Below, one piece after another: positions 3,085 to 64,000 of a stretch of 64,000 nucleotides of DNA. The position numbers and the translations under genes were made by a program. Origin of the DNA: an uncultured Verrucomicrobiae bacterium. GTDB lineage: Bacteria; Verrucomicrobiota; Verrucomicrobiia; Chthoniobacterales; Chthoniobacteraceae. Positions within the stretch are counted from its first letter, which is position 1. Each line of letters opens with the position of its first letter. The stretch lies in NCBI GenBank assembly GCA_963769025.1, contig CAVYKI010000012.1:288001-352000 (forward strand), written 5' to 3'. Below the pieces are notes generated by a model. That model saw nothing but the letters and a program-made list of their open reading frames with translations. It was not told the DNA's origin and did not search any database.

Positions 3085-3252
3085 AAGGTAGGTATCGATT
3101 CGGCGAAGGAGGCGGACATGCGCGACCTGTACTGCCGTTGTGTCTGCGGCTGACGCGTTGTCACGACAGTCCGGTTGCCACCAAAGCACAAGTCCCAAGT
3201 GTCAGACGGGGACTCTCACCCGGCAGTTCCGCACGATGGTTTGCGCAGCGAC

Positions 3253-4779: not shown

Positions 4780-4819
4780 CGGCGTGGGTTGTTTGTTGGA
4801 AACGGGTTGTGGTTGAGAG

Positions 4820-16414: not shown

Positions 16415-17978
16415 TCAGGTCGTGCCGATGGCCGCTTCCATCAGCGTGTGCTCGGTCCACTCGGCGGCGGGGCGCACGGCGGCGAGTCTGCCGCGGCACA
16501 TCACGCCGATGGTGTCGCAGACACCGAGCAGTTCCGGGATGTAGCTGCTCACGAAAAGCACCGCCTTGCCCTGCGCCGCGAGTTCGCCGATCAGCCGGTA
16601 GATCTGCGCCTTGCTGCCGACATCGATGCCGCGCGTCGGCTCGTCGAGCAGCAGGATTTTCGCGTCGTGATGCAGCAGGCGGCCGAGCGCGATCTTCTGC
16701 TGGTTGCCGCCGGAGAGTTCGCCGACGGCCTGCTCCGGATCGCGGGCGCGGACGGACAGCTTGGAAATCCACTCGCGCGTCGCGCTGCGCTCGCGTCCGC
16801 GCAGGAGCCAGCCGGCGCGTGCGATCGGGCGCGTCGCGGTGAGATTTTCCGTGAGCGAACGCCGGAGCATGAGCCCCTCCTCCTTGCGGTTCTCGCTCAG
16901 CAGTCCCACGCCCTGCGCGAGCCGCCGCGGCGGCGATGCGGAGGATTCCTCACGTCCAAAAATCGCGACGCGCTCCGCAGCCATCGCATCGAGCCCGAAG
17001 ATCCGCCGCAGCAGCTCCGTGCGCCCCGAGCCGACGAGCCCGAACAGGCCGAAAATCTCGCCGGCGCGGACGCCAAGGTAGGGCGCGCTCGCCGAGTCGC
17101 GCCCGATCTCCCGCTCTCGTCATGACTTCATTCCGGCTCGCGCTCCCGCTTCAAATGGGGCGCCTCGGCGAGGTCGCCCTACCATGCGCCGCCTCCACGC
17201 GCAGCACCACCTCCCCCATCGCATGCGCGATCCGCGGATACAGCTCGCTCACCTCGCGGCCCACCATGAGCCGGATGATGTCCGCCATCGGCGTCTCCGC
17301 GAGCGCGCCGGTGCCCACGCTCTCGCCGTCGCGCAGCACGGTGAAGCGGTCGCACACGCGCCGGCATTCCTCGAGGAAATGGCTGATGTAAATCACGCTC
17401 ACGCCGCGCGCCTTCAGCCGCGCGATGACGGCGAAGAGCCGCTCCGCGTCCGCCTGCGTGAGGCTGCTCGTCGGCTCGTCGAAAATCATCACGCGCGGCT
17501 CGCCCGCGAGCGCGCGGGCGATTTCCACGAGCTGCTGCTCCGCGATGGAAAGCGAGCGCACCGGCGCATCCGGCGGCAGGTCGCCGTGGCCGAGTTCCGC
17601 GAGCGCGCGCCGCGCCGTGTCGCGCATCGCGCCGCGCCGCAGCCAGCCGAGGCTTCCGAGATACGAAGGCTCCGCGCCGAGCACGATGTTCTCGGCCACG
17701 CTCAAATCCGGCGCGAGGTTCAGCTCCTGGTAAATCATCGCCACGCCCGCGCGCCGCGCCTCGTGCGGATTGCGCGGCGCAAACGGCGCGCCGTCCAGCA
17801 TGATGCGCCCCGCGTCCGCCTCGTGCGCGCCGCTGAGGATTTTCATCAGCGTGCTCTTCCCCGCGCCATTCTCGCCGATGAGCGCATGCACCTCGCCCTC
17901 GCCGACGCCCAGCGAAACGCCCCGCAGCGCGGCAGTCGCACCGAAGGATTTCTGAACTCCGTCGAGCGTCAGTCGCAT
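16415..17978 (-). pseudogene. Sugar ABC transporter ATP-binding protein (RbsA-like), interrupted at 17077-17183
   Basis: N-half has GENGAGKST and IFDEPT. C-half has VRAGEIFGLFGLVGSGRTE, LSGGNQQK and LLDEPTRG. A stop at 17151-17153 and a frame change coincide with a palindromic insertion. Confidence 0.8.
17077..17183. repeat. GTAG-type REP doublet (REPIN-like) inside the ABC ATPase gene
   Basis: Left arm GGTAGGGCGCGCTCGCCGAGTCGCGCCC (17077-17104); right arm GGGCGCCTCGGCGAGGTCGCCCTACC (17158-17183), inverted. Confidence 0.8.
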
Positions 17979-18035
17979 CACTTCAAAAAGGCAAATTCCT
18001 CTGCTTCCGGGTCAGGTGATTTTGTCTCGGCGCGG

Positions 18036-20510: not shown

Positions 20511-20585
20511 TCCGGAGTAGCTCAATGGTAGAGCACGCGACTGTTAATCGTGTGGTTGTAGGTTCGAGTCCTACCTCCGGAGCCA
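20511..20585 (+). tRNA. tRNA-Asn(GTT)
   Basis: TCCGGAG acceptor stem, TAGCTCAATGGTAGAGC D-arm, CTGTTAA anticodon loop, GGTTCGAGTCC T-arm, encoded CCA. Confidence 0.97.
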
Positions 20586-43000: not shown

Positions 43001-46000
43001 TTCGGCAGGATGAGCGAACCGCTGCCGGTCTTGGTGAGCACGGCACCGGCGCCGTTCGAGGTGGTTGTACCGATGGCGTTGGTGGTGATCGCGGAGGCGA
43101 TGCTCAGGTCGTTGAGCGAACTGCCGGTGACGTTGATCGTCGTTCCTGTGGCGTTGCTGAAGTTCACCGTGCCGCCGGTGATCAGGGGAGTGAACCCTGA
43201 GTTGTCGTTGTTCACGCTGATCGCGGAGGCCGAGGAGTAATCCAGCAACGTGCCCACGTTCACCGTCGGCGCGGCATTGCCGCCCGTGTTGTTGATGGTC
43301 AGCGTCGTGCTGAAGCGGTTGGTGCCCACCAGGGTGAGGATGCCGCTGCCGTTGATGGTGACGGCGCTCGTCGAGGCGATCTGGCCCTGGTTGGTGTTCA
43401 TCGCCACCGTGGCACCGCCATTGATGACGAGGTTGCCCGGGATGACGATGGAACCCGGCAGGCCGCTCAGGTTGGTCGTGCCGCCGGCATACTGGTCGGT
43501 GGAGGAGTTGATCGTCGTCGTGCCGGTGTAGGCGTTGTTGATCGCGCCCACGGTGAAGGTGTTGGTGGCGCTAGTAGCCAGAGCGTTCTGCGACAGGGTC
43601 AGCGTGAAGCCGGTGGCATTCGTGCCGGCGACAGCGGTGATGGTGGTGCCGCCCGGGATGTTCGGGCCGCCAATGTTCATGCCGATCTGCGGAGTGAAGC
43701 CTGTGGCGAAGTTGTTCGCAGGAGTCGTCACGGAGTTGCTGCCGAGGGTGGTCGATGCGGTGGCAGTGAGGCTCGCCGGCGCGGCGAAGGTGATCTGTGC
43801 GGTCGCGGTATTCACCGTGGCGCTGGTGGCGGCGGAGAGGGTGATCACGTTTCCGGCAATGTTGGTGATCGTGGAACCGCCTGTGATTCCCGTGCCGCTG
43901 ACGGCCATGCCGATGAACAGGCCGGTGCTGTTCGGCACCGTGATGGTGGTCGAACTAATCGGGATCTGCGCGACGGTCAGGCTCTCGACCACCTGCGGCG
44001 CCAAGGTCAAGGTCAGGTTCCCGGTGCTGCGGGTCACCGAGAGGGCACCGCTGCCGCCGGACCAGAGGCCGGTGGTGCCGCTGAGGGTGGCACCGTTGTT
44101 CACGATCGGGGTGTTGATGGTCACCGTGTTCTGGGAGCCGACCTGCACAAAGAGGGTGGATGCCGTGTTGAGCGCGCCGGCCGTGAGGCTGCCGCCCTGG
44201 ATCGCAATCGCCTGGTTGTTCGAGTTGCTGACCAGGAGGCCGCCGCCTAACAGCACGAGCTGGTCGGTCGTGCCGTTCAAGCCCAGCGTGGTGGCCGCGG
44301 CGGGGTTGGTGAACGCCAAGGTGTTCAACGTCTGGCCAACGACGCTTTGGGTCGTCGCTCCCACACCGGCATTGGCCGCAGGGCCGCCGCCGAGCGCGCC
44401 GTAGTTCGCCGTGCCGTTGGTGTTCGGGATGCTGACGCCCGCCGTATTCGAGTAGGTCGCCCAGTTGAAATTGTTGGCGGTGCTGGAGACGACCAACTGA
44501 GGGCTGATGATGCCGTTCACCATGCTCGAGGCAGTGAAGGGCACGCCGTTCAACTGCGAGATAAAGACGCGGGCGTTGGCGGAGGTGAAGGCGCCCAAGC
44601 TGCCGCTAAACGGAGCCTCGATGTTCAGCGTTGAATTGTTGTTCACCACCAGGTTGGCAATGTTGAACGTCGGCGCCGAGCTGTTGGCGTTATTGCTGTA
44701 CTGGTTGATGTAAAACAGGTTCGATCCGCCGTTCAGGGTGACGGTGCCGAAGTTCTGGCTGCTCGTGGCCGAGGTGGAATTCACGCGGATGGCGCCGCCC
44801 GTCAGGTTCAGCGGGGCGCTGGCGGAGATGCGGGCGTTGTTGGTGCTCAGGCCCGTGTTATCGAGGATGAGTGCGGCAAAGTTGGCGTTAATGGCCGCAG
44901 TGCTCGCGATGCTCGCCGAGTCACGCAGGGTGATGCTGCCGCCGCGGATGGTGGTCGTGCCCGTGTAGATCTGCGGGGTGGTCAGGGTCATCGCCGTGTT
45001 GCCCGACTTGTCGAGGCTCAGGTTGCCGCTGAACTGGCCCGAGAAGACGCTCGCCGCCGCATTCGTGGAGAACGTGGCCGGCGTGGCACTGCTGTTGGTG
45101 ATGACGATGTTCGGGCTGCCGGCCGTGCCGCCGCCGTAAGGCAACTGGTTCGTGCTGGTCAGGGTGCCGACGAGCTGGTTGTTGCCGTTGAGGTCCACCG
45201 TGCCGTTGTTGACCGCCAGGTTTTCCGCGCTCGGTGCGCCGCCGCTGTTGATATAGACGTATAGCGGGTTCGTGCTGTAGGTGTAACCGCCCAAGGTGCT
45301 GGCGTTGGAGCCGGAACCGGTGCCGAGTTGCAGCGTGCCGCCATTGACGGTGACCGTCTGGGCGTTGTTGCTTGTGAGCGGCCCGTTGAGGACGAGCGTG
45401 CCGCCGTCCGCCTTGGTGAAGCCGCCAGTGGCACCGGTGATGATGGCATTCAGCGTCAGGGTCGAGCCAGTGAGGACGTGGTAGTCCGTCGTCACGCTAC
45501 CGTTTGCAAATGTGCCCGTCGTGATGTTGTTGCTGCCGGCCAGGTTCAGGACGCCGCCCGTCGTGCTATTCGTGAAGTTCAGCAATCCGCCGTTCGCGCC
45601 GAAGGGATTGGTCGCCACGATGGCTTGGTTGATGCCACCGCCGCTCTGGAGCGTGAGGGTGAGCGTGTTCGCGAAGCTGGCCGCAAAGTTGCCGGCCGCG
45701 AGCGTGTTGGCGGTCGCGGAACCGTAGGCCACGGTGCTGAGGCTCACGTTCGTATTGGCCGCAGTCGTCGTGATCAACGTGCCGGTAAGTTCCGTGCCTG
45801 GGTTCAGCGCACGGACGAGGCCTGAAACAGAGTCCACCGTCAGGAAGCTGGTGCCGTTGCCGCTGGCACTCGGATCCACGAGGATATCCGGGCGGATGCT
45901 CCGGGTCAGCGTGGCGTTGGCGCCGCCGCCGCCGAGCAAATTGGCACCCGGGAAGGTGCTTGCCGCACCGGCGGTCGCAAACGTAACAGCCGCGATATTC

Positions 46001-49000
46001 ACCCCCGCGGTACTGCCCAACCCGTCGCCGCGGATGAGCAGCGAGGTTGCAACGCCCTGGCCAGCGAAGGCCTGAAGCTGGACGTTCACGCCGCCCGTAC
46101 CGGCGGCGTTCAAGGTGACGATGCCGCCGCCGGTGAGGCCCATGGTGCCGAGGGCTTCGGTGACCGGCGTGCCGCTCGTGCCATTGATCGTCAGGTTGCC
46201 GCCCTGCATGTTGAGCGCGCGGATGGTCGGGGCCAAGGTGTTGGAGGTCGTGAAGAACGCTCCGCCGAGGCGGTTGTTCGTCGCGGTGGTGGCGTTGTCG
46301 AGCACGAGGTTGCCACCTGTGGGGAGCGTGTAAGTCTGGAAGCTGATGGCACCGCCGCCGGTGGCCGTGCCCAGGTTCACGATGCCGCTGGAGACGTTGA
46401 GTGTGCCGTTCGCGGTCGTCTGGGTGTTGTTGGTCAGGCTCCAGGTGCCGGTGCCGATCTTGGTGACGTTCAAGAGGCCGGTCGGGTAGGGGCTGGCGAA
46501 CGTGCCGGCGTAGGTGGTGGAGCTGTTGTCCAGGCCGGTGGTCAGGTTGCCCGCCGTGCCCTGCACGCCGTTCATGATGACCGCGGACGTGAGGCTGGAA
46601 GCGACCGAGCCGACCACCAGACCGCCGTAACCGGTGCCGGCATTGTTGCCGCGGGTATCGATGGTCGTATTGGCCGACATCACCACCGCGCTGCCCAGGA
46701 CGTTCGAGGCCGATCCAGTGCCGGTGCTCCAAGCGAGGCCGCCCGCGGTCAGGTTGAAGGTCGTGCCGACCAGATTCTGGCTCTGGCCGCCGAAGCCGAT
46801 GTAGCCGAGTCCGGTCTTGGTGAACGACGTGGCTGTCGCGAGGGCGATGTTGGCGTTGATGTTCAAGCCGATGTTGGCCGGGCTATATGTGGGGGCATCC
46901 ACATTGATGGTGGGCGTTGCATTGCCCAGGACGATGAACCCGTTGATGGTGGGAACCGTGAAGGTGGACGCCAGGTTGGTCGAATTGATGGTGCCATTGA
47001 TGGTCAGCGCACCGGCTCCGGTGAAGACCGTCGGGCCGTTTCCGCTGTTGCTGCCGCCATCATTGTTGAAGGTCAGGTTGTTGATCGTCTGCGTATTCGA
47101 CACCGTGAAGGCGTTCGGGCCCGGCGCTGAGCGTGCCTGAGCCCAGATTGAGCTGGGTGGCACCGTTCATGGTGATGTTCGCCGTCGGGGCAATTTGGTT
47201 GGCGAGCGACCAGTTGACCGTGGTCGAGTTGAACCCCAGCGAGTCCGCGCCGGCGCTGGTGCCGCCGGAGACGATGAGGTCGTTCGGGATCGCAGGCCCG
47301 AGCAGGCTGTTCAGGTTCAGCGGAGCACTGTTGAGATAGGTCGTGCCGCCGTAGGTGTTGGCGTTGGTCAGGATGATCGTTCCGCCCGCGGCGCCAGGGC
47401 CGGAAATGATGACGTTGTTGTTGGCACCGTTATCAATGATCTTGGAGTTGATCGTATTGTTGTTGGCACCGGCGTAGATGAAGAGGTCGTTGTTCGTCGC
47501 GCTGCCACCGTTGGAGATCGAGCCCGAGACAATCTGACCTGGGGTGGCGACCGAGCCGATCGCCTTGCCGTTGTTGTCGTTGCCGAAGAGGATGCCGCCG
47601 GACTGGACGAGAAGGGTATCGAAGGCGTTCGTGAAGCTCAACGTCGTGCCGTTATAGACGCTCAACGAATTGACGGTGGTGGTGGTCGCCACGTTCAGCG
47701 GGCCAGGGATCGTCGTGTTGGCCGATGTCATCGCGTTCACCCCTGCGCCGTAGGTGGCTGTGGGCTGGTATTGGAGGATGCGGACGCCCGCAGCCGGGTC
47801 ATACGTGGCGAAGCCGATGTTGGTGGCGGCGTTGCTGCTGGTCAGGCTGTTGACCGTGGCCCAGCCGCCGATGATGCCATTGGTGTTCGTGAGGCCGGTG
47901 ATGAAGTAGTCCGGGTCCGAGCCGGCGGTGTACGTGCCGGTGCCGAAGGTCAGCGTGCCGCCAGTGGCACGGGTGCCGAGGCCGCTGAAGGTGACCGATG
48001 CGGCAGAGCCCTGGCCGACATTCGAGACGTTGATATTGCTTGCGCCGGTTCCCAGGTTCAAGGTGCCGAGGCTGATGGCAGACGTCGGGTTCGAGCCGCT
48101 GCCGGCACGGGTGAGGAACTGGAGGCCGCCACCGGTGAGGGTGATTGGGGCCGTGGAGGAGAGACGGTTCGACACCGCCTGCACGCCCTGATCGTTCCAG
48201 ATGAGGGCCGCACGGGTGACGTTCACGGCGGTGGCGTTCTGGAACGTGCCCAGATCGACGAGGGTGGTGGCACCGCCCAGGATCGTCGCCGATCCGCTGA
48301 AGGTGTTCGGCGAGTTGACGGTCAGGGTGTTGTTGCCGTCGCGGACGAAGCTCAGCGCACCGCCGCTGGCCGCGCCGGTCAGGCCGATGGTGTTGCCGGT
48401 GATCGTGCCGATGGTCTGGCCGTTCGAGATATTCCCGGCCCAGGTCTGGTTTCCGTTCAGGGCCACATTCAGCGTGGCGGCCGTGGTGGCGCTGCTGTTT
48501 ATGATCGTGCCGCCCATGAGCTGGGTGCCGCTGCCGCTGCGGAGGTTGGCCACGGACTGCGTGGTGCCGTTCAGGTCGAGCGCGCCGCCGAAGTTCACCG
48601 TCAGGTTCTGGGCAGACACGGCTGCGCCGGAGTTACCGGGGGTGGGGGCGGTGTTGAAGGGCCGGAAGATGGTGTTCTGGCCACCCCCAAGTTTCAGCGT
48701 GCCGCCGTTGATGGTCGTATCACCCGTGTACACCTCCGCCGTGCCGAGGAGGAGCGTGCCGGCATCAGCCTTGGTCAGGCCGCTGCCGTTGCTGAAGATC
48801 GGGGCATTGACCGTCAGCGTCGTGCCTGCGCCGACGGTGTGGAAGATCATTTCGCGGTTCAGCGTGTTGCTGCCGGTGAGATACTGGTAACTGCCGCCGC
48901 TGTTGATTGTCGCGCTATTCAGGGCGAGCACGGCACCGCTGTCGAGTTGCAGGCCGGTCGCGATCGTGGTGACGTTGCTGGCGTTGTTCAGCGTCAGCGA

Positions 49001-52000
49001 GTTGATCAGCTGGGCCGCGCTGGCGATGCCAAAGCTGTTCGTCGCGCTGGTGGAGGAGATGTTCGCGTAGCCGGCAAGGCCAAAGACGAGGTTGCCCGCC
49101 ACAGCGGCCGCCGTATTACTGAGCACGATGGTCGTGCCATTGGTGATGCTCGCAATGGTCGTTCCGTTCGTCGGGATGGCCCCCGAAGAGACGCCTGCGG
49201 CAGTCACGCCCATGACGACTTGGCCGGCATACAGATTCGCGGTACTTGGAACGGTGATCGTCGTGGACGCTGCGGGAGTGACGGCTGCGAAAGTGGTCGT
49301 CGGGTTCGCGTAAACAATGGCCTGCGTGGTTGCCGTGACTCCGCCGTGGCGTTGGCGCTGATGGTGAACGTCGTGCCGCTGGCGATCGCGGTGATCACCG
49401 CGTTGGCCGGGATGCCGGTGCCGGTGATCAGCTGCCCGACGGACAGACTGGCCGTGCTGCCGACGGTGACCGTGGCGTTGGCGTTGGTGGTGTTGACGTT
49501 GAGCGCCGTGAGCGCCGGAGCCGCCGCGAGGGCGTTGTTCGCGTTGTTGGCGATCGACGAGACGCCGTAGATGTTGGACTGCAAGGCGCCGGTGTTGCCG
49601 CCGATGCCGCCGGTCCCGACGACGCCGTTGTAGCCGTTGTATCCCGCGAAGCCCGTGCCGCTGCCGCTGGCCGAGATGTCAGCCAGGGCCCACTGGTAGA
49701 TGAGGGCGTTCGGCGCGTTCCAGACGCCGGCCTGGCCGACCGCCTGCAGATTGTTGCCGCTGAGGCCCAGACTCGTGGCATTGCCGATGATGTTCGCCGA
49801 GTTGGCGCTGCCAGCGGTGAGCGTCCCGAGGCTGTCGCCGCGGAACAGCGCAGTGCTGGCCGCGCCACGGTTGAAGATCGAGGTGGAGGTGGACTGCGTG
49901 CCCGTGGTGATGCCCCCGGTACCGGCAGAGTTAAGTGTGATGGTGGCTCCGCCGATGCCGTTGGCCTGACCGATGTTGATGTTGCTGGCGCCACCGGTGA
50001 CGTTTTCCGTCACCGCGGTGTTGCCGTTTGCCAGGAGATTTCCGTTGATGACCAGGGTGCCCGTCAGGAAGGTGCCCGCCGGGGTGACCCAGCGGCTGTT
50101 CACCGCTGTGACGGAATTGTCCAGCGTGACCGTCGCCCCCTGGCGAATGATGGGAGCCGCGGTAAACGTTTCCTTCGCAGCGCCACTCAGGGTCACGCTG
50201 CCCGCCTGCACGTCGATGGTGGTGACCGCCGACGTGGCGTTGGTCAGCGTCAGGTTGTTGCCGCCGACCTTCGTGATCTGGAAGGCACCGGCGAACGTAC
50301 CGCTGAGGGTGATGCCGCCGTTGACGCCGGGTTGCAGGCTCGGGCCGCCGATTTGGGTCGTCGCGGCGAGGGTGATGTTGCCGGGATAGGTGGCTGGGGA
50401 GGCGCTGGTGTTGGTCAGGGCACCCAGGAGGTTCGCTCCGCCCTGGACGTTCACCAGACCGGCACCATTCAGCGTCAGGGGCTTGGCTGTCGTGACGGTC
50501 TGGCCGTTCAGATCCACCGAGGTGCCGACGGATCCCACCACAGCGTTCGTCACGCTGCTGGTGAAGCCATTGGGTCCGGTGAGCTGCACCATTCCGGAGG
50601 TGATGTTCAGGACACCAGTGAAGGTGTTTGTGTTACTGAGGATAAGGGTGTTCGGCCCCACCTTGTTCAACGGCGAGCCGGCGACCGAGTCCTGAATCGT
50701 GCCAAGGACACTGATGTTGCCGAAGCCACCGATGGAGGCGTTGACCGTGGCGGTTGCCGCACCGATGGAAAGTGTTCCGCCGACCGGGAGGCTGGCGGTG
50801 GTGGCACTGCTGTTGTAGAGGCCGGCAGGGGCATTGCTGCTCTTGGCAGCGGGGCCTGCGCCACCGTTGAGGATGATATTGCCGGTCGTGGACACCGTCT
50901 GGCCATTGAGGTCGAGGGTCACCGGGGTGGTGGTCGCCACGCCGATGGTAGTCGTGCCGGTGGTCAGGCCCGCGCCGTCCTGAAGCTGGACGAAGCCGGC
51001 GTTGATGTTCAGCGGGCCGGTGAAGGTCCCGGCGCTGGCACCGAGGATGACGTTGCCCACACCGGTCTTGGTGAGGCCGAACCCACTGTCCGTGACGCCT
51101 CCTGCGAGGACGAACGTGCCGGTGGTCGGGCTGACCGTCGCGCCTGCGGCGGTGATGGTCGTGGTCCCGGTGACGATGAAGGCGCCGTTGCCGGCCGAGC
51201 CCGCTGCGAGACCGGTGCCGTTGGCGACGGTGAGGATCGAGTTGTTGCCAAGGCTCAGGCTCGGGACGGCATAGTTGAAGTCCGTGCCCAGACCATCAAT
51301 CGTGGATGCGCCCGAGGCCGCGATGACGATCGGGTTGTTGAGGATGGCGGCATTCTGGTAGCCGTTCGCCGCGGTGTAGCTGGTCGAGTAGGCCAGATTG
51401 CTCAGCGCGATTGCCTGAAGCGAGCTGACCGGAGGCGTGCCGCTGAGGGTATTGGAAGCGGTATCCGGGCCGCTGTAGAGGATGAAGGCACCACCGCCGC
51501 CGCCTGCGTTGAAGACACGCTGAGTGATCTGGTGGGTACCCGCAGTGAGATTCACCGCCTGGAGGCCGGCCTGGCCGCTGATGCCTGTGGATTGCACCGT
51601 CTGCCCGTCAATGACGAGCTGATAGAAGTCATCATTTGCCTGGCCGAAGAAGTAGGTGCCGCCGGTGGTGACCGTCAGCAAGCCTTGGTACGTTGCGAGA
51701 GTATTGGTCAGGCCGCCGGTGTTGACGCCGGCGGGGGCATTCACAAAGAGACGGTCGGTGATATCGGCGCCTGCGAGAGTGCTGCCGGGGGCGACGCCGA
51801 AGTTGGCGGCGGCGAAAAGGGTGGTAGCCGCCGGTGTTGTAGTATTTCGCCGTCACACCGCCGAGGTGTATCCGGTGGTGTTCACGGAGCTGGAGTCGAG
51901 CGGCGAGATCTGCAGGGTGCCGCCGTCGTTGATCGTGATGGTGCCGGTGCCGAGCGGGGTCGTGCTCTGTGCCGCCGACGGAGACACGGACACTGTGCCG

Positions 52001-55000
52001 GTGATAGGCGAAGCGGCCACTGCGCCAGTGTTCGAGCCGCTGTAGAACAGGGTGCCGGGACCGATGTTCACGGGCAGGTTCGTGCCGACGGTGAAGCCGC
52101 CGGGCAGGATGAGTCCGACGCCGCTGCCGACGTTGAAGGTCGGGCTGCTGGTCGCGGACGTCAGGGTGGTGCCGGTGAACCGGAGCTTGTAGCTGTTGCC
52201 GCCGGTGACGTTAAGGCTGGTGCCCGGTGCCGGGTTGCCCGCGGTGGTGCTGGTGAAGGTCGTGCCGGCCACGGTGCCGTAGTCCAGCGTGCCCATGACG
52301 ATCGTGTTCGCGGTGTTGGCACCGGCGTTGTTGACGTTGATGTACGCATTGGCCAGCGCGGTGCTGATCTGCACATCGTTGCCGTAAGTGATGGGGCCGT
52401 TGCTGGTCACGACCGCTGTGCAGCAGGGAGAGCACGCCGCCATTGATGACGACCGGGCCGGTGCCGAGCGAAGATTTGCCCGCGTTCACGCCGGTGGCGA
52501 GCAAGGTGCCGGCGTTGAGCACGACACCACCGGTGAAGGTGCTCGCTCCGCCAATTTGGTTGGTCAAATTGAGGGTGCCGAGGCCGGTCTTCGTGATGCT
52601 CGTGCCAGCGCCGGTGATGAGGCCGTTGACGTCGCCGTCATGTTCGGCGCGTTGACGTTGAGCGTCGCGCTCGCGCCGACCGGCAGAGCGAACGTCGACC
52701 GGGCGGAGCCGATGGTCGAGGCTGACCGCGGCGGTGCCGGTGGCGTCGAAGTTGACGTTGCTGCCGGCGATGACGTTGTTGGTCGACCGGAGATTGGGCC
52801 CGTGCTGTAGAGCGTGCTGCCGCTCCCCATGCTGAGCGTGCCGGTGCCGAGCGGGCCCGCGTGATCGGGGAGCCGATGGTGTCGTTCGTGCTGTTGGCGG
52901 CGATGGTGAGATTCGTGCCGCTCGGCGAGGTTGATGCCGCCGGTGAAGGTGCTCTGGCCGGACAGCTGCAGGTTGCCGCCGCCCGCCACATTGATCGCGT
53001 TGCTGGCGTTGGTGAGGACGGAGGTGATGATCAGCGTCGGCTGCAACGGCGCGACGTTCTGGCCGTTGAAGGTGATCGGGTTGACGGTGATCGACGGCGA
53101 AGCGACGTCGTTCAGGTTCACCGTGCCGCCGGTCAGCGACGCGTTCGTCGATGGGTTGCTCGACGAGGCGGTGATCGAGCCGCTGGTGAGCGTGAGGATG
53201 CCGGTGTTGGATCGTCGGCGCGGTGGTGCCGCCGTTGTTGTTGTAGGTGAGGCTGGTGAGGGTGTTGTTCACCAGGAAATTCATCGTGTTCACGCCCTGA
53301 AGGACGCCCGCGCCGGAGTTGATGGTCACCTGGTTTGTCGCCGGGTTCACCGCGGTCACGTATTGCGCTTCCAGGGATGCCAGTGCCGGTCACGAGCTGT
53401 CCGACGGCGATGCCGTTCGTGCTGGTGACCGTGATGACGTTCGAGCCGAAGGCGTGGTGACCGAACTGGCATAGGCGAGGCTGGAACTTGTGTTCAGCGC
53501 GCCGTTGCCGGCGATGGTCGCGGATTGCGCGGAGGCGGTCCCATAATAGCCGCCGGCCGGCGAGTAGATGACGGAGCCAGCGGTCTGCGTGAGCGTGCCG
53601 CCATGCAGGAAAATGCCGCCCGTGCCGAGGGTGCTCTGGCCAACGGTGACGTTGCCGGCGTTGCCGAGCGTCACCGTGCCCTGATCGACGTACGTGCCGC
53701 CGGTGTAGGTGTTCGTGCCGTTCAGCGTGTAGGCGCCCGAGCCGCTCTTCACCACTGCCATCCCGTAACTGGTGATGGTGCTGTTGATGATGCTGGTGGC
53801 GCTGCCGGTCAGGAAGAGTTCCACCCCTCCCGAGGTCAGCGCGCCGTTGTTGGTGGAACTGCCGAGGGTCAGGGCGCCGGTGGTCAGCAAGCCGCCGCTG
53901 GCGAGCGTGAGGGCATTGGTGCTGGTGACGGTGCCGCTGGTGCCGAAGCCGATGGCGGTGGTGGCGGTGATGCGCAGGGAGTTGATCGTCTGGCCCAGGC
54001 TGTTCTGGGCCGTGTTCATGAGGTTCACTCCGGTGCCCCCGCCCATCGACACGTTGTCGGTCGCGACCGCGTTGTTGATCAGCAGCGGCGAATAGCCCGC
54101 AAAGCCGGTCGCGCTCAGCGCCCCGACCCCGTAGGTCGCGTTATAGCTGGCGAAGTCGGTGGCGTTCACGGTGTAGGCCCCGCCGAGCAGGCTGTTGTTC
54201 AACGTCGGCGCCAGTGTGAAGAAGATGTTCGGGTTGCTGCCGATCTGGCCCAGCGTGCCGCCGGTGTTCGTGAAGTTCACCGTCGAGCCCGCCGCCCGGG
54301 TGATGCCGCTGCCGGTGAGCGTTAGCTCCGCCTCGCTCAAGCCGGTGGTCTGCTGCGTCAGGCTGATGGTGTTGGCACCTTCCGTGGTGCTGATCTGGCC
54401 AAGCCGTTTCCGCCGAGATGTACTGGGTCCGGCCGAGGTAGGTGATCGTGCCGCCGCCGAGGGAGATCCCCAGGCTGGACGGCAGCCGGGTGGAGGAGTC
54501 CATCGAGCCCGTGTTGTCCAGGGTCAGGTTTGCGCGGTTGATGGTCAGGCTGCTGGAGCCCGTGGTGCTGGCGCTGTAGAGCGCGCCGCTGCCGACCAGC
54601 GTGAGGCTCATGCCGTTGACCAAGGTGGGGCCCGTGTAGGTCTGCGCCTGCGTGAAAACCTTCGTTGATGCCGCGGTCGAGGAGAGAACGACACCTTGGG
54701 TTCCGGCGATCACGCCGGTAAAGTTGCGGCTGGGCCCATCTCCCTTGAGCACCACCGACCCGCTGCCGTTCACCGTCGAGCTTCTGCCGAAAATGCCCAC
54801 ACCACCCGCGGCAGCGCTGTCCGAGAAAAGGTCGGTGAAAATCTGGGAGTTGCCGTTCAGGTTGAGGGTGGTCCCGGCACCCATCGTCATGTAGTTGGCG
54901 AACCGGATCGTGTTGTTGCCGGCATTGAGACCAGCGTGCCGGCGTTGAGAACGGTCTGGCCGTTATAAAACGCGGTGCCCGTCAACGTGAGGGTTCCGGC

Positions 55001-58000
55001 GTCCGCCTTGGTGAGACCCGCACCGGCGCCCCCCGCGCCACCGACGATGTTGCTGCTGATCGTGAGGTTGGCCACCGCGTGGATGATCAATTCATTGCCG
55101 CCGCCGGTGATTTGGCCGCCGGAAATCAAGTTGCTGACGGTATCCAGGAGAGGATGGCTTCGCCGAGGGCATTATTGGCAATCGTGAGGACGGTGTTCGA
55201 GTTCGGCTGCGTCAGGCTGGCACCGGCGCCCGCTTGGGTGCCGAGGGTCAGCGAGTTGATCGTCTGCGTGAGCGTGCCGGCCTGGCCGGTGGTGCCACCG
55301 AGACCGGTGTTGGCAGCCGAAGCCAGGGCGACGTTTACGCCAGTACTGCCGAAGGTGAGGAGCGAGGCGGCGGGAACGGTGGCAACGGCACTCAGGGTAA
55401 GGGTGCTGCCGGCGATGGCGGTGATGTACGTATTGGCCGCGATGCCGGCGCCGGTGATGGATTCACCGACATACAGGGATGCCGAGAGGTTGTTCGTGGT
55501 GGTCAGCGTAGTGGACGCGACGGTCGCAGTGCCGGAGAGCGTGTTGGCGGCACTGGCCGCGTTGGCATTCACGTAGTTGGCAAAGGCACTGTTCGTTTCA
55601 CTGGCCGCCAGATTGCGCAGGTAACCGCTGGCGCCGATGACAGTGGAGGTCGCGAGGGAGACCGTGCCGTTGTTGCTGACGATCGCCCAAGGCAGGATCC
55701 CGAGGTTCGCCGTGCCGGTCTGCACGGTGCCCGCGCCGACGAAATTCGCCGCCGTGGTGATCGGGCCGGTATTGATGGAGGCCGAGGCCGTGCCGGTGCC
55801 ACGGTGCCCGAAATCAGCGCCGCACCGACGCTGTTGAAACTGGCTGTCGAGAACGCGCTGCGCGTCCACCCGCCGCCGGTGCCGGTGAGAATCAGATTGG
55901 CAGGACCGCCGGTGGTGGGAGTGAGGTTGGGCGTGACGTTGAACGTCGTCTGGCCGCGACCGAGGGTCAATCCCGCCAGGGTTTCCGACGACGTTGCAGC
56001 GGCGTTGCCGATGAGATTCAGGGTGCCGCTGCCCGAGGTGAGGAAGGTGTGCGGTGCGACGCCCAGACCGCTGGTGGAAATATGCCGGTTTGGTCGGTGC
56101 CAGCATTGTCCAGGGTCACGGTGCCGCCGGTGAGGGTCCCGGAGCCGGTGGCGAGATCCCCGGAGCGGAGTTGGTCAGCACCTTGCCGCCAGTGCCGGAT
56201 GTCGCACCGCCGGTATTCAGCGTTCCATCAGAAGCGCCGATGTTCAGACGGCAGGCCGGCGGGCAAGGTCGTCGTCCCGGCCGTCGTTGTGAAGTTCAAG
56301 GTTCCGCCGTTCAAGGTGGTGACGCCAACGCCCGCGTTGTTAATCTGCGAAGCGGTGCCGGCCGAGGCGCTGATGATAATGGAGCCGCCCGCCTCGTGCC
56401 GCCGGTCCATGCGCCGATGCCGTTCAGGGTGAGCGAGCCGGTGCCGCCCACGACCGTGAGCTTGCCGGTGCCATTGGTCGTGCCCGTGAAGGTCAGGTTC
56501 GTGCCGGGGGCGACGTTGACGTTGGTATTGCTGCTGAGAGAATGCCGTTGTCGCGCTGATCGTGTTGTTCAGCGTCGCGTTATTGATGGCCGCCGCGGAC
56601 GCCCCCGTTGTTCATGTAGATCGTGCTTCCGGCGGTGCCGGTGGCGATCACGTAGCCGCTGGTGACGGGGTTCAGCGTCAGCGTGCCGACGTGTTGAAGA
56701 CCGTCCACGGTGACGGTTTGAATCGCCCCGTTCGTCGTGGCGAACGTGGCGTTGTCCCCGGCGAGTTGGGGCACCACACCGCCGGTCCAGTTGCCCGGCG
56801 TATTCCAGCTATTGGGGCCGGCCGAGGTCGGAATCCAACCCGCCGTAATGCCCGCATAGCTGCCGCTGATGGTGAGGGTGACGAAGCCGCCACCCGTGCC
56901 CAGGGCGTAGGTGATGCCCGTGGGCGCTGCGGACGTGACCAGGCCGCCGGCCCCGAGGGTCGGGGCGGCACCGCCGTCCTGGATGAGATTGTACGTGCCG
57001 GCGACGGTCGAGAACTGGCCGAAGGAGAGCGGGGTGACGACCGTGCCCGCGCCGAAGGAGTAGGTGCCGCCGAGAAGGTTGCCGACGGTGAGTTGATCGG
57101 CGCTGTTGCCGGTGGCGGTGTCGAACTGAAGGATGCCACCGCTCGCGGTCGTGAGGTTATTGATGGTCAGCGGCCCGGTCCCGATGATGCCGACGCCGCC
57201 GGGATTGATGATGCCGCCCGAATTGAGGCCCACGTTCCAGAACGAGCCGCCCGCGGGCGCGCTGCTCAGTATGCCGCCGGCGTTCAGCGCGATCGTGCCG
57301 CCGCTGAAATTGGTGATGCCCGTCGTCGTCGCGGCAAGGCCCGATGCCAGCGTGCCGCCGCCGGAGACGGTCGTGGTGCCGCTCAAGGCCCCCGACGCAC
57401 TGATGATCGTGACGTTCGTGCCGGTGATGTTCGCGCCGCGGGTGTAGCTCTGGGCCGCGCTGATATTCGTGACACCGCCGGAAAGGTTCAGGGTGAGGGG
57501 TCCCGAGAGGGCGTTGGCGGCTGTCGCGGCAACCATGCCGCCCGTCTGGGGCAGGCTTGCGGGACCGCCTGCGACGAGCGAGGGGAGCGCGCCTGCGGCC
57601 GAGAGGACGAGGTTGCCGTTGCCGAAGATCAGGGTGGTGGTGGCCGAAGGAACGCCGGTTCCGCTGGTGATGGTGATCGTATTGCCGTTGATGGCCGTGA
57701 TGAACTGACCGCTGGCGGGCATGCCAGGGCCGCTGACCGATTGCCCGACAATAAGGCCTGTCGCGTTGGCGACCGTCAAAATGTTCGATCCTGCCACGGT
57801 CGTGCCGATGGTGGAGACGTTCGTTCCGGCCACGCTCGTGCCGCCGGTGTAGTTGTTCGCGACGCTGAGCGTGGCGGTGCCGGCGCTGATGGTCAGCGAG
57901 TTCGTGCCAGTGAGGGAGTTGGCCGTGTTTTGAGTCAAACCCGCGAGGGTGCCCGTCAGCGAGATTGGGCCCGTGCCCGCGGCGCCCACGGCATTGAACG

Positions 58001-60537
58001 CGACCGTGCCGCCAGGAATAATCGTGCCGCCCTGATAGGAGTTGGTGGTCGAGAGGGTGAGGGTGCCGAGACCGGTCGTTGCACTGCCCGGGTCCGTGGT
58101 CAGACTCCCCACGCCGGAGATCGCGCCCGAGATCGTGCCGCTGCGTGGCGTGGCGTACGCATACCAGTCGCGCAACCCGATAGTGGCATTCGCGTTGAGG
58201 GTGATGGGACCCGAGAAGACGCCCGCGTTGCCGTTTTCAAAGCTGAGCACGCTCTTGGTTCCGCCGCTCACGGTGATCGCGTTCGGAATGCTCACCGCAG
58301 TGGTCCCTTGGACGATCAGTTCGCCCTGGTTGCCGATGTTGAACGTCGCACCAGCCGCGACCGCGCTGGTCAGTCTGGTACTCGACGCTGCCGCCCGCAT
58401 TGATGGTGATCGCGCCGCTGTAAGATTGCGTTCCCGTATTGAAGCGCAGATTCCCGGAGTTTGTGACCAGCGTGCCGCCGCTGGCCACCGTCAGGGGACC
58501 GCTGCCGATCAGAGTGTTGGCAGTGCTGAAAATAAGCTGCCCGCCGGCTACATTGATCGAGCCGCCGCTGGCGCCCACGGTGATCACGTGGGTATTGGTG
58601 AAGCCAGCAGTGGTCCTGAGCCGCTGTGGCGCCGTTCAAGCTGACGCCGGTGGCCGCGGCCCCGAGGTTGGCATCCGCGCCGATGGAGAGGGTGCCACCC
58701 GTGATCGAGGTGGTGCCCGTGTAGAGGTTCGTGCCGGAGAGGACGAGAGTGCCGCTGCTCACGTTGACGGCATTGACCGTGGCGGCGATAGCGCCCGTGA
58801 TCGTGGCCAGTCCGGCGCCGCTGTTGGCGTTGGTGATCGAGCCGGTGGTCGCGATGGCCCCGACGCTGATGCCGTTGCCGACGATCGTGTTGTTGAAGGT
58901 CAGGTTCGCCACGGCCGCGGAGACACCGCCCGTCAGGGTTACCAGGCCCGCGCCGGTGCTGTTGATGAATCCGAACTGGGTCGGAGTGAGCGCGGTGGTG
59001 ATGGTGAGGGGCGAGGTCCCGGTCTGATTGAGCGCCGTAACATTCGCGCCAACGGTGGCGATGGTGGTCGTGCCCGCGCCCGCGCCGCTGTTGGTGATGG
59101 TGCCCCCGTTATTCACCGCAACCGTGCTGAACGTGGTGCCGCCGGCAGCCACATTGTTGATGGTCAGATTGAACGCGCCGGTGACGCCGCCGCTGAGCGT
59201 GAGCGTGCCGGCTGCCGCCGCGCCAACGGTGGCATTGCCACCCAGAACGATCGCCCCGCCATAGCTGGCCGCGGTCGCGGAGCTGTTCGTAATCGCGCCC
59301 CTCGGCAAGGCCGTGAGACCCGTGCCCGCGATGTTCAGCACGTCGGTGTCGGTGACGACGAGGCCGTTCATGTCGATGGCGGCGCCGGACTGGATGGTGG
59401 TCCCCGCCGTGTTCGCGCCCAGTCCACCCGAAACGCCGCTGAGCTGCAGGGTTCCCGCCGCGACGGTGATCGTCCCGCCAAAGTTGAACTGCTGCCGCAG
59501 GATGAGTGTTCCCGTGCCCGTCTTGGTCAGCGCACCGCTGCCCTGGAGCTGCTGGGCGGTCAGGCCGGTGCCGGTGACCCCGGTGGTGCCATCGTCCACG
59601 GTAAATGTGCGGCCCGCATCCACATCAAAGGTGCCGCCTCCCGCCCCGATGTTGAACACCTGGCCAGCCGAAAGATTGGTCGCGGTCGGGACGTTGACGT
59701 TGTAATCGACAGCGGTGACGCGGAAAATTCCGCCATTGGTCAGCAGAATCTGCTTGTCGCCGTGGTGGAACCCCGGCCCAGCTGCGAGACAGTGGTGGCC
59801 GAGCCCTGGGTGTAAACGAGCGTGCCGCCATTGATGGCGATATCGCCGGTGAAAGTGTTGCCCGTGTTCGTCAGCGACACGACCGTGCCACTGGCAGCGC
59901 CGGTGCCGATGGTCAACCCCACCGTTCCTGTCGCCACCGTCCCCGAGATCAGCCCGCTGATCGTCGTCGCACCCGTGCCCGCGATAATCAGCGGATTGGC
60001 GCCAAGCGTCAGCGCATTCACGACGGTGAAAAGACTCGCCGAGTTATTCGTCCATGTCTGCGTGCCCCCCAGCGTGATCGCCGTGCCATTGGTCGCGTTT
60101 CCGATGGTCACCGCACCGGCACCGCCATTGATCGTGATGCCACCGGTCCCGAGCGTGAGGGCGCGCGTGGTGGTGGTGTCGCTCTGCAGGGTCGTCCCGC
60201 CCGTGTTGTTGAAGGTGATGCCGGCAATGGCGGTGGCGGCGTTCAAACTGATCGTCTCCAGGCCGTTGACGGTGGATTGATTGAAAACCACCGAATCCGC
60301 CGCCAAGGGAACCACGCCAGTGGTGCCACCGGTGTCCGGATCGTCAGACCAATTCGCACCCACCTGCCATGTGCCGGAGGCCGTGTTCCAGTAATACGAA
60401 ACGGCACCTGCCTTCGGAGTCGAGAACAGCGAGGCCGCGAGGAGCGCGATCGAGCCGGCGAGGATGCGGGAGCGACTGCCGGGATGTGCCTTGCAGGAAG
60501 TTTTGCGGCGGAGGAGGATGAGGCGGTTCATTTTCAT
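40016..60537 (-). CDS. Very large (about 6800 aa) autotransporter-repeat PEP-CTERM surface protein, broken into more than 15 ORF pieces by frameshifts
   Basis: One signal peptide at 60537 (MKMNRL...TPKAGA|VSYYW) and one PEP-CTERM at 40016-40145. Continuous G/T/A/N/S-rich beta-repeat coding in between, in abutting or overlapping ORFs with no intergenic gap. Confidence 0.8.
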
Positions 60538-60850
60538 GGCTTGGGAGAGTGAGGACTGAAGGATTCTGAAACTAGCGGGTCGGAAGGGTGCGATGCGTGT
60601 CGATGCGAAGAGTCAATTCCAGCACGAGTGCACGACAGAACGTCGCGCTAGCACTGCACCGAGGTGGCTCGCCGGTGGGGGAAACCGGGAATTGGAGACG
60701 AATGAGTGATAATAACCTAGGGAGGGGGAAATGCGTTAATGAGTCGGAAAACGGTTAAGGAAAGCATGTCACCGTGGCTATTGGCAAGCGATTTGACGTG
60801 AAAACTACATTCTTTGTGTGGCGAAAACCACTACTCAGCCCATCCTCCCC

Positions 60851-60919
60851 TGATTCACATCAGATGAATCACAAATGACGATTTTGAAGGGTTCAGAATT
60901 TATCCATAAGTCACTTATG
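60851..60919. promoter_or_regulatory. Two palindromic sites in an AT-rich intergenic segment
   Basis: TGATTCA-N7-TGAATCA (60851-60871) and CATAAG-TCA-CTTATG (60905-60919). Confidence 0.4.
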
Positions 60920-60940
60920 TAGAGTGTGTTATTTTAAGAC

Positions 60941-61109
60941 CGGTGGATCACGGGTCCGTTCGCAGTGATTTCGACGGCAGAACTGAAAGCGGATACAGTT
61001 TCGCCTCAGTGGATCACGGGTCCGTTCGCAGTGATTTCGACGGTTGGCGATCCGTGCGCGGGTGGCGCGGTTCAATGGATCACGGGTCCGTTCGCAGTGA
61101 TTTCGACGG
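60941..61109. CRISPR. Orphan CRISPR-like mini-array (3 repeats, 2 spacers)
   Basis: Repeat core RTGGATCACGGGTCCGTTCGCAGTGATTTCGACGG at 60943-60977, 61009-61043 and 61075-61109. Exact 66-bp period, unrelated spacers, AT-rich flank on the left. No cas gene in the window. Confidence 0.6.
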
Positions 61110-61508
61110 TGGAAGCTGCCAGCCTACCACACACCCCTCGCTGCGTTTGGAATCGGAACCGAGCGCGGTAAAAAAGTGCACCGGACATCGCCGACATACG
61201 ACAGTTTCCACCGCCGCGCATGGTGTATTTTGAGCTTGGTGCGCACATAAAACGCCCGCTCGACCACGCATCCGCGGAGTGCGCGCCACCACCAAACCAC
61301 CCAGGAGTCCACTACGGATGCGGGTTCCGCAGGCATGGCACTCAGAAAATCTCGCATCCACGCAACGACTCCGGCATCCCCGCCCACCTCACGCCATTTC
61401 AAAAGAAGCCGTTGCGAGATGTCGATGATAATACTTTGATGAGCCTTCGCCGCACCGCTCCTCGAAAAGTCACGCGAGCCGCTGCGTGCGGAGGACTTTC
61501 GCCGCCAA

Positions 61509-64000
61509 TTACTTGCGGGCGAATCGCGCGCGTGTACCGGTGAAGCGGCGGCGCTCGCGGTAGCCGATGAGCGCGCACAGAGCGACCACACCGATGAGCG
61601 CCGTCGTCGCAGGTTCCGGCACCGGCACGATCTCGTACTGGCTGCCGAAGCTGACTTCCGCGGCGCCAAATCCGATCTGCGTCATGCCGCTGTCCGAGAA
61701 GAATGTGATGTTCGCGAGCTGCCCGGCGTTGAACCCGCTGCCCGTGCCGTTGAACAGGAACCGATCCTGGCCATCGCCGAGGCTGCCGGTGTCATTGGCG
61801 AAGCTGCCGACCGGGTAGCTGCCCGCGGTCCAGTTCCAGATTGCCAGCGTGCCGCTGGCAAAGGTCGCATTCTGCGCGAAGACCAGCGCGTTGCCCACCG
61901 TCCCGGTTCCGAAGTCCAGCGTCGAGGCACCGCTCAGTGTCAGCGCGCCGAAGGTCTGCGTCTTCGTCGTGTCGTTGGAGACGGTGGAACCAACCGCGAG
62001 CGTGCCGCCGGCGAGATTCATCGTCGCCGTGGTGTTCACGACGTTGCTTGCATTGTTGTTCATCACCAGCGTGCCGCCACTGTTCACCGAGACGCCGGTC
62101 GTGCCGCTCAGGCTGCCGCCGGTCGCCAGTTCGAGCGTGCCGGTGGAGGTCACCACGGTCGCGCCGTTATACGTGTTGTTGTTGCTCACCGTGGTAGTGC
62201 CGCCGCTGATGGTAAGGTCGGAGTTCGGATTCGATCCGACGATCGCGCCGGTCACGGCGATTCCATTCGCACCGCCAGCCAGCGTGAGCACGGTGCCGTT
62301 CTTGGTGAGGGTTCCGGCGAGCGTCAGCTTGCCTGTGCCGCTGTTTTGGACGGTGTCATTGCCGTTGCCGAGTGCGGTGATGTTCTTGTCGAGTGTGCCC
62401 GCGCCGCCGGTGTAGTTCAGCGTCCCGGAGGAGGTCGATGCGACGCCGAGCGTGACGGCATTGGCGCCGGTGTTCATGCCGAGCGACTGCGAAGTCGCAC
62501 CGGCTGCCACGGTGTCGATGTTCACCGTGCCGGCGTTGATGTTTGTCGCGCCGGTGTAGCTGTTGACGCCGGTGAGCGTCAGCGTGCCGCCGGTAGTCTT
62601 GACCAAGTTTGCGCCACCGTTGAATTCGTTCAGGTTCGCCAGCGTGCCCTGCCGCAGATTGAAATTGATCGGCGTGCCGGTGGATCCGATCTTGTTGCCG
62701 CCCATGTCGAGCGCGGCGGTGGCACCGTCGAGCGTGACGTTGGCGGTCGTGCGCGTGACGGTGGACCGGATGATGTCTCCCGCGAGCGTGGTGGAACCGC
62801 CGGTGATGTTCAGATTGTCGGTCGTGGTGACCACGCCGGTCGCCGCAGTGAGGTTGCCGAGCCGGATGGAGAAGACGCCCGTGGTGCCGATGTTCACCGT
62901 GCCTCCGGAGATGTTCAGGTTGCCGATGATCGTTCTCGCTCCCCCTGAGGTGTCCGTCACCGTTCCCATGCTCACGCCACTGGCACCAATGGTGACCGAG
63001 CCGCCGCCGATGGTCACGCTGGAAGTGGTGACGGGGCTGACGGTCGCGGTGGTGCCGAGCGAGGCATTCCCGATGACCATTCCGGTGGCGACCAGGATGC
63101 CGGTGTCAAATTTGAAGTCGTTGTTGATCGTGAAATTGCGCCCGCCGCCGCCGACGGTCAGGGTGCTGATGAGCAGGTCGGCGTAGCGCCCGGTAAAGTC
63201 CACGAGGTTATGTTGCCCCGCCGTACCGGTTCCGGTATTCGCCCCCGTGCCGACATTGACGCCGACCGCACCGGTCCCGTTGAGGGCGCGGAGGGTGATC
63301 GCGCCGTTGGTGGCAGCCGGGTTGAAAATCATCACTCCAAGGTCACGGGTGCCGCTTGCGACGTTCAGCGTGTTCACGTTCAGCGTGGTCAGACCGGAGC
63401 CGAGCTGAACCGTGTTCGCCGTGCCGCCGGAGCTGAAACCGGGACTGTCGCCCACGTTGAAATTGGTCGCGGTGATGGTGGTGACCGGAGTGGTCGCCGT
63501 CACCCCTGTCGGGATGGGCAGCAGGAAGGTGGCGACGTTCGCGGTCACGTTGGTCGCGTCGTTGTTATTCACGCGGAGCGTGCCGCTCCCGAGGCTGATC
63601 GTCGTCGTCGCCAGACCGGTCAGGTCGAGCGTGGCGGCGTTGCCCACCGAGCCGGTGGCACCGCCGATCTGGAGGGTTCCAGCCGCGGCGCTGACATTGA
63701 ACGCGCCGACGCCCGGGGTCGCCCCGGTGATGGTCAATTTGGTCGTGGCGGTGCTCGACGGGTTGAAGCCGACGGTCACGTTGCCATTCACGGCCAGGGC
63801 CTTGCCGCTTCCGACGATGATGGTGTTGGCGGTGGCGCTGCTGGTCTGCACGAGCAGCGTGCCGCCAAAGGTGGCGTTCGACGGTGTCGTGCCGAGGTCG
63901 AGCGTGCCCGTAATGGTCGATGCGGCCGCGGCACCGAAGGTCAGCCCGCCGGAGAGCGTCTGGTCCGCCCCGAACCGGAGGGTGCCCTGGCCGATGATGG
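61509..64000 (-). CDS. Third autotransporter-repeat PEP-CTERM surface protein (5' part outside the window)
   Basis: Frame open from the window end; beta-strand repeats; C-terminal YEIVPVPEPATTALIGVVALCALIGYRERRRFTG. Confidence 0.92.
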   Translation of the reverse strand, partial: IIGQGTLRFGADQTLSGGLTFGAAAASTITGTLDLGTTPSNATFGGTLLVQTSSATANTIIVGSGKALAVNGNVTVGFNPSSTATTKLTITGATPGVGAFNVSAAAGTLQIGGATGSVGNAATLDLTGLATTTISLGSGTLRVNNNDATNVTANVATFLLPIPTGVTATTPVTTITATNFNVGDSPGFSSGGTANTVQLGSGLTTLNVNTLNVASGTRDLGVMIFNPAATNGAITLRALNGTGAVGVNVGTGANTGTGTAGQHNLVDFTGRYADLLISTLTVGGGGRNFTINNDFKFDTGILVATGMVIGNASLGTTATVSPVTTSSVTIGGGSVTIGASGVSMGTVTDTSGGARTIIGNLNISGGTVNIGTTGVFSIRLGNLTAATGVVTTTDNLNITGGSTTLAGDIIRSTVTRTTANVTLDGATAALDMGGNKIGSTGTPINFNLRQGTLANLNEFNGGANLVKTTGGTLTLTGVNSYTGATNINAGTVNIDTVAAGATSQSLGMNTGANAVTLGVASTSSGTLNYTGGAGTLDKNITALGNGNDTVQNSGTGKLTLAGTLTKNGTVLTLAGGANGIAVTGAIVGSNPNSDLTISGGTTTVSNNNTYNGATVVTSTGTLELATGGSLSGTTGVSVNSGGTLVMNNNASNVVNTTATMNLAGGTLAVGSTVSNDTTKTQTFGALTLSGASTLDFGTGTVGNALVFAQNATFASGTLAIWNWTAGSYPVGSFANDTGSLGDGQDRFLFNGTGSGFNAGQLANITFFSDSGMTQIGFGAAEVSFGSQYEIVPVPEPATTALIGVVALCALIGYRERRRFTGTRARFARK

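Follow-up and report, generated by a model that had tools for sequence, protein, structure and literature searches.

A probable CRISPR-kind array of three repeats between two surface-protein genes of an uncultured Verrucomicrobiae bacterium

An array of three identical 34-nt repeats separated by two unrelated spacers of equal length was identified in a stretch of 64,000 nucleotides (hereafter the window) from the genome of an uncultured Verrucomicrobiae bacterium. The array is a probable member of the CRISPR kind, with a repeat that was not seen elsewhere. In the preferred reading, which is given an even chance, it is a minimal CRISPR array (three repeats, two spacers) that lies far from cas genes and is either used in trans or a relic. 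This reading is favoured by the exact triplication of the repeat at a constant distance (66/66), the equal length and unrelatedness of the spacers, the non-coding site, the AT-rich flank and the uniqueness of the repeat within the 64 kb. Counted against it are the small number of repeats (only three) and a window that contains no cas genes, no anti-repeat and no degenerate terminal repeat. The repeat also has no Rfam match, no match in the genomes searched and no significant hairpin, the two plus-strand translations have no counterpart among 5.8 billion proteins, and no protospacer was found for the spacers in the phage and plasmid collections. In the accessible text of a survey of complete genomes (PMC7145637), the distance to cas genes exceeds 20 kb for 23% of CRISPRs, and a further figure of 12% is given for orphans, which are shorter. 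The same text describes short untyped orphan "arrays" as enriched in false positives and the untypable ones as the shortest of all. The rating of the minimal-array reading was placed at the midpoint because cas-distant arrays are, as far as this text goes, common and short, and the untypable ones include false positives.

Repeats, spacers and the surrounding locus

In a search of the window that tolerated three mismatches, exactly three occurrences of the 34-nt core were obtained, all of them on the plus strand and with 0 mismatches. None of 100 dinucleotide-preserving shuffles reached three core matches. The core start-to-start distances are 66 and 66, and the triplicate core with a period of 66 described in the first-pass annotation is therefore borne out. 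Column-by-column comparison of the three copies confined the identity to core positions 0 to 33, the base on the 5' side of the core being G, G and A and the base on the 3' side C, T and T in copies 1, 2 and 3, respectively. Since the identity ends sharply at both core edges, a repeat length of 34 nt is certain, and 36-37 nt is the maximum that can be reached with one mismatch. The earlier proposal that the repeat extends to 37 nt holds only as this upper bound. Further 5' of the core, the trinucleotide TCA is common to copies 2 and 3.

The two 32-nt sequences between the cores share 8 of 32 positions, a value equalled or exceeded by 1068 of 2000 shuffles and hence at chance level. The two spacers are thus unrelated, as had been claimed, and are 29-32 nt long depending on the repeat length that is adopted. 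Tandem Repeats Finder did not call the array at 60944-61109, an outcome that is to be anticipated with unrelated spacers. No additional degenerate copy of the repeat was detected in either flank, where the local alignment scores of 13-14 were matched by 165 to 403 of 500 shuffles. Two further repeats that had been suspected by eye, near 60865-60890 and 61148-61183, aligned no better than shuffled flanks and were rejected. The only other short-range direct repeats of at least 24 nt in the whole window are coding PATR repeats with 61-73% identity. CRISPR arrays are generically recognized by three or more near-identical direct repeats of about 23-50 nt at regular distances, unique spacers of similar length and a non-coding site, and the locus shows these structural features with its three exact repeats and its two unrelated spacers of equal length. 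The features of the locus are listed in Table 1.

Table 1. Positions of the repeats, the spacers and the neighbouring features in the window
Feature	Position	Strand	Remarks
Left-hand ORF (265 aa), first of the broken PATR chain	59740..60537	-	ATG at 60537; distance to the array 404 nt
Repeat copy 1 (34-nt invariant core)	60944..60977		Edges most deviant of the three: CCGG 5', C 3'
Spacer 1	60978..61009		Intercore length 32 nt, or 29-30 nt with a repeat of 36-37 nt; GC 0.50
Repeat copy 2 (34-nt core)	61010..61043		
Spacer 2	61044..61075		Intercore length 32 nt; GC 0.69
Repeat copy 3 (34-nt core)	61076..61109		
Two back-to-back terminator-like hairpins with T-runs	61196 to 61179 and 61209-61225	- and +, respectively	Flanked by the upstream gene's stop on one side and the array on the other
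Right-hand gene, 3' end of a large PATR protein with PEP-CTERM anchor (PF12951, PF07589)	61509..63998	-	Runs off the window; stop codon 400 nt from the array

The array sits within a 970-bp non-coding gap that separates two large PATR surface-protein genes. Its placement between two large surface-protein genes was confirmed, with PATR sequence on both sides and the PEP-CTERM anchor on the right. The PATR ORFs to the left of the array form a series on the minus strand from 60537 down to 40600. This series had been described as a single 20-kb adhesin gene, a description that did not hold: at 47163-60537 it is a chain of overlapping ORFs, in which the frame switches 14 times from about 60.0 to 47.2 kb according to GC3 frame tracking, and the 2187-aa ORF at 40600-47163 (minus strand) is a single open frame. 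An intact PATR gene of 9.4 kb in the same window (28198-37641), used as the control, showed 0 frame switches in the same GC3 tracking. The 14 switches in the overlapping ORF chain point either to decay of the gene downstream of the array or to a poorly polished consensus.

The GC content is 0.36-0.48 in the left flank (60700-60950) and 0.58 in the right flank, compared with 0.645 in the whole window, and the AT-rich stretch reported to the left of the array was therefore reproduced. The AT-rich segment at 60700..60940 may serve as a leader, which would require plus-strand reading of the array, or it may equally contain the promoter of the gene starting at 60537 on the minus strand. No sigma-70-like promoter site was detected on either strand around the array. 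The two terminator-like sites observed compare with 1.2 expected by chance. An inverted repeat (TGATTCA ... TGAATCA, 60850-60872) was noticed by eye in the AT-rich flank, about 75 nt from copy 1, and may represent either a site for protein binding or a small hairpin. On the other side of the array, just downstream of the stop codon of the PEP-CTERM gene, positions 61398-61469 of the minus strand match the SAH riboswitch model with 17.1 bits (gathering score 37, E 1.9). The gene relevant to such a riboswitch is absent after it, and the match is probably due to chance.

Array type, cas genes and relatives of the repeat

Domains of Cas proteins, TnpB, IscB, Cas9 and Cas12 were absent from the window in comparisons of 35 ORFs with Pfam and of 46 ORFs with PADLOC, in agreement with the first-pass annotation, which had seen no cas, TnpB or IscB gene. 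The window covers 60.9 kb to the left of the array and 2.9 kb to its right. The PADLOC matches in it are limited to generic similarities to methyltransferases and ABC-ATPases. An anti-repeat was likewise not found within the 64 kb, the longest stretch complementary to the repeat being 10 nt (E 1.4), and the proposed search for a tracrRNA, run within the window, was accordingly negative. The spacers have no second copy in the 64 kb, and no self-target was found for them in the window.

The repeat had been credited with a 3'-terminal hairpin of the type V kind, which the folding results did not support. When the repeat was folded on both strands and compared with shuffled sequences, z values of +0.31, +0.80 and +0.62 were obtained, with 116, 154 and 144 of 200 shuffles, respectively, folding as well or better. 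A significant hairpin of the repeat on either strand was rejected on the basis of this comparison. The minimum-energy fold of the plus-strand repeat uses a GGATCAC/GTGATTT pairing instead of the 3'-terminal hairpin, and the short inverted pair ATCAC ... GTGAT inside the repeat is paired in it.

The earlier assignment to class 2 on the basis of a unit of 36 + 30 nt was also not sustained. The data give no more than a range for the repeat (34-37 nt) and for the spacer (29-32 nt), which indicates no single type, and these lengths fit several class 1 subtypes as well. There is no support for placing the array in type V or type II. The 66-nt unit is within the usual range of both types and is also compatible with some class 1 subtypes. 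The features expected of type V, i.e. a supported 3' hairpin and a Cas12 or TnpB domain, are missing at this array and in its window, and those of type II, i.e. an anti-repeat and Cas9 and IscB domains, are missing within the 64 kb. A caution follows for similar cases: a 66-nt unit together with a foldable repeat is insufficient for calling the type of an array.

Relatives of the repeat were sought in 185,579 species genomes, with one genome per species and the source genome not among them. An exact search with a 22-mer of the repeat gave 0 hits. In a second scan of the same genomes, three copies of the 9-mer at the 5' end of the repeat were sought at spacings of 47-70 nt. The 60 loci obtained are all unrelated to the array: they include several true CRISPR arrays, which belong to other families, as well as coding repeats, and they share at most 9-14 nt with the 39-nt repeat. 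Since both scans need exact motifs, relatives altered inside both motifs would escape them. Rfam includes CRISPR repeat families, and no match of the array to it was obtained at the gathering threshold or at E values up to 10. A tblastn search of the translated array against the plasmids and the 60 loci detected nothing.

The spacers had been proposed for comparison with phage and plasmid sequences, and this comparison yielded nothing above chance level. No protospacer of either spacer was found in 50,697 phage records. In 72,556 plasmids, the sole spacer match was that of spacer 2 to a Streptomyces plasmid (27 nt, 92.6%, E 0.5), which is at chance level. Spacer 1 had no match elsewhere in the window, in the phage records or in the plasmids.

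Gene callers often predict ORFs across CRISPR arrays. The open frames of the array were therefore used as queries against protein collections, the minus frame being compared with 1.84 billion representatives. Two matches to the minus frame, designated P0121 and P0122, were obtained among them. P0122, a plain tandem repeat of 22 aa that lacks spacers, was not considered further. P0121 (122 aa, E 2.4e-5) is a translated repeat-spacer array that consists of four 12-aa units with spacers of 12-13 aa, followed at the end by the repeat once more in a shifted frame. The two reading frames fix 31 of the 36 bases of the P0121 repeat. The minus strand of the array repeat agrees with these bases at 20/31, 19/31 and 17/31 positions in copies 3, 2 and 1, respectively. 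Although only 4 of 3000 shuffles of the reconstructed P0121 repeat equalled the best count (20/31), this fraction is not a fair probability, because P0121 was picked as the best of 1.84 billion sequences, and the E value counts one 12-aa match three times. Owing to this selection and to the triple counting, P0121 is treated as a lead and not as evidence of kinship. The reconstructed P0121 repeat forms an 8-bp hairpin, whereas the array repeat does not, and tblastn of P0121 against the plasmids and the 60 loci gave nothing. Translated-array queries may offer a way to probe protein-only collections for repeats. In the sequence comparisons, the repeat had no counterpart among the genomes, Rfam and the protein sets searched, apart from the weak resemblance to P0121.

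The array may be read in either direction, and the evidence points both ways. The plus strand is favoured by the AT-rich flank on the left, by the terminator-like site located on that strand 100 nt past copy 3, and by G-U pairs, which can form in the plus-strand RNA only. Arguments for the minus strand are the shared orientation with both flanking genes, the edges of copy 1, which deviate most, as those of a terminal repeat would, and the P0121 lead. Read on the minus strand, the array repeat would start with GTCG after two conserved C's, and copy 3 alone would extend into ATTGAAC. This heptamer is perhaps reminiscent of the ATTGAAA-type 3' terminus that many class 1 repeats have, although it occurs in one copy only.

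Origin of the array and alternative explanations

In the minimal-array reading, two rounds of Cas1-Cas2 integration would have built the array, each of them duplicating the repeat exactly and adding a ruler-measured spacer. An origin of this kind is suggested by the exact duplication of a block of 34-37 nt, each time with a new, unrelated insert of fixed length. We know of no other common process that gives exact block duplication together with new inserts of fixed length. Tandem duplication would copy the spacers too, and selection for binding sites rarely holds 34 consecutive bases invariant beside unconstrained sequence. If the array is still used, its transcript would be cut within the repeats by a Cas nuclease, or by RNase III with a tracrRNA, encoded elsewhere, and two guides would be released. 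The array may equally be an idle relic, to which the presence of two spacers only, the untypable repeat and the decayed neighbouring gene would correspond.

A cis-acting element of a non-CRISPR nature is an unlikely alternative in which the repeats would be protein-binding sites or RNA leader modules that control the surface-protein gene starting at 60537. The array is located 404-572 nt upstream of this minus-strand start codon, inside a long non-coding gap, and its repeat holds the inverted pair ATCAC ... GTGAT, both of which would suit such an element, as would a window without cas genes and an array without a CRISPR-family match. However, three sets of 34 invariant bases beside unrelated spacers of equal length resemble exact duplication and not site selection. 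The structure of the repeat is not significant, and no second instance of the element is present upstream of the other PATR genes of the window. The candidate target gene is, moreover, broken by about 14 frame switches. The regulatory role toward the adhesin gene proposed in the first-pass annotation is weakened for this last reason, the downstream gene being a frame-shifted ORF chain.

As a neo-CRISPR, a sub-variant of the preferred reading, the array could also have arisen from an ordinary local sequence of ~34-37 bp beside an AT-rich stretch that was hit twice by off-target Cas1-Cas2 of a system encoded elsewhere, an explanation that is regarded as quite improbable. Each hit would have duplicated this sequence and added one spacer, and the repeat would carry no features for Cas binding. 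This origin would account for a repeat that is both unique and featureless: the repeat was not met elsewhere (185,579 species genomes, Rfam and the protein sets) and has no significant structure. The perfect identity of the copies, which suggests a recent event, the AT-rich neighbour and the presence of just two spacers of exactly equal length are in line with it as well. Off-target integration that spawns new arrays has a precedent in E. coli and, with circumstantial evidence, in two other species, as related at second hand in citing papers (10.1101/148544, PMC6698737, PMC7054753). On the other hand, neither Cas1-Cas2 nor a canonical array is on record for the source genome, and natural examples are rare and circumstantial. 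The weak similarity to P0121, were it genuine, would speak instead for a repeat family acquired by inheritance.

Two readings of larger consequence are considered together. The array may be a natural newborn array, produced when stray Cas1-Cas2 integration twice duplicated ordinary intergenic DNA beside an AT-rich promoter region, or a guide array that stands alone, whose repeat class is not represented in the 185,579 species genomes and which is served by an effector not yet described; this pair of readings is rated as rather improbable. If true, either would be an uncommon case in nature in which the origin of an array, or its use at a distance from cas genes, could be observed.

A small gene for a repetitive peptide, such as a multi-core precursor with conserved recognition blocks and variable cores, is a highly improbable explanation and close to refuted. 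The 66-nt unit corresponds to 22 codons, two plus-strand frames stay open, and the ORFs at 60943-61233 (96 aa) and 60965-61171 (68 aa) cross all three units in frame. However, the GC3 of these two frames is 0.57 and 0.59, and the three open frames across the array taken together have values of 0.57-0.59, compared with 0.76-0.87 in three real genes of the window. No Pfam family was found above the cut-off in the array-spanning frames, and neither plus-strand frame had a relative among 5.8 billion proteins at E values up to 10, the ORFs themselves not being present there as predicted proteins. The low GC3, together with the lack of Pfam families and of relatives in these searches, indicates that the array locus is non-coding. 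The nearest radical-SAM genes are, in addition, 55 kb away from the array. An assembly artefact in the form of a mis-joined or collapsed repeat region, to which the frame switches in the adjacent 13 kb could point as signs of a poor consensus, is scarcely credible, as a collapse or mis-join would not yield three exact repeats around two different unique sequences of equal length, and the contig is long (601,150 bases).

Comparison with known arrays and other features of the window

Cas-distant and orphan arrays are the closest to the present array in structure and function. In the accessible part of the survey that describes them (PMC7145637, Bernheim et al. 2019), they share with it the absence of cas genes within 20 kb, a small size and an untypable repeat. 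The mean number of repeats given there is 8 for orphan arrays and 5 for untyped arrays (PMC7145637), and an array of three repeats lies at the very bottom of this size range. The identity used for typing in the same available text (PMC7145637) is 74%, and the best lead for the present repeat, with 20/31 positions, falls below any typing level. The present array may be either a distant or an orphan one.

Several features of the array are also common to the neo-CRISPR arrays described by Nivala, Shipman and Church (2018), as that work is related in citing papers: a very short array, a repeat unique to its locus, exact duplication, a fixed spacer length and an AT-rich neighbourhood. In contrast to the present locus, at which neither adaptation genes nor a canonical array for comparison of the repeat length are available, that work is related to have dealt with E. 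coli cells over-producing Cas1-Cas2. Minimal arrays of mobile elements, e.g., those of CRISPR-associated transposons (PMC11300857), likewise have few repeats and are not being extended, according to the available text. The transposon arrays described in that text adjoin their own Cas and transposition genes, none of which are present in this window. The gap that holds the present array, moreover, is only 970 bp and lies between two chromosomal surface-protein genes.

The significance of the array depends on which reading is correct. A plain small cas-distant array would be one more case of a common class and would matter little beyond the annotation of this Chthoniobacteraceae-like genome, and a stand-alone array of three repeats would not surprise a specialist. 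If the genome has a CRISPR-Cas system whose repeat differs from this one in sequence but not in length, the array would become one of very few natural candidates for array birth by off-target integration. Such birth has so far been documented mainly in engineered E. coli, as related in citing papers (10.1101/148544, PMC6698737).

Other features were noted elsewhere in the window. The best matches of its proteins point to Verrucomicrobiota of the Chthoniobacteraceae kind: an S9 peptidase is 82-86% identical to its closest foreign counterparts, among which the named ones are MAG proteins assigned to Chthoniobacteraceae, and 66% identical to a protein of Chthoniobacter flavus. On the minus strand at 691-5869, a gene for an 835-aa protein with two methyltransferase domains adjoins genes for two radical-SAM proteins (508 and 349 aa). 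The 835-aa protein also matches the PADLOC model "mad2" (E 2.5e-36), which most likely reflects generic methyltransferase similarity. Two adjacent ABC-ATPase ORFs of 189 and 276 aa are located on the minus strand at 16415-17981, the first of which matches only the second half of the ABC_tran model. These ORFs may derive from a single sugar-transporter ATPase with two domains that a frame shift has divided; a permease and a periplasmic binding protein are encoded next to them. The sole RNA gene found in the window is a tRNA-Asn (GTT) gene on the plus strand at 20511-20585, which adjoins a CotH-kinase-family gene on the opposite strand.
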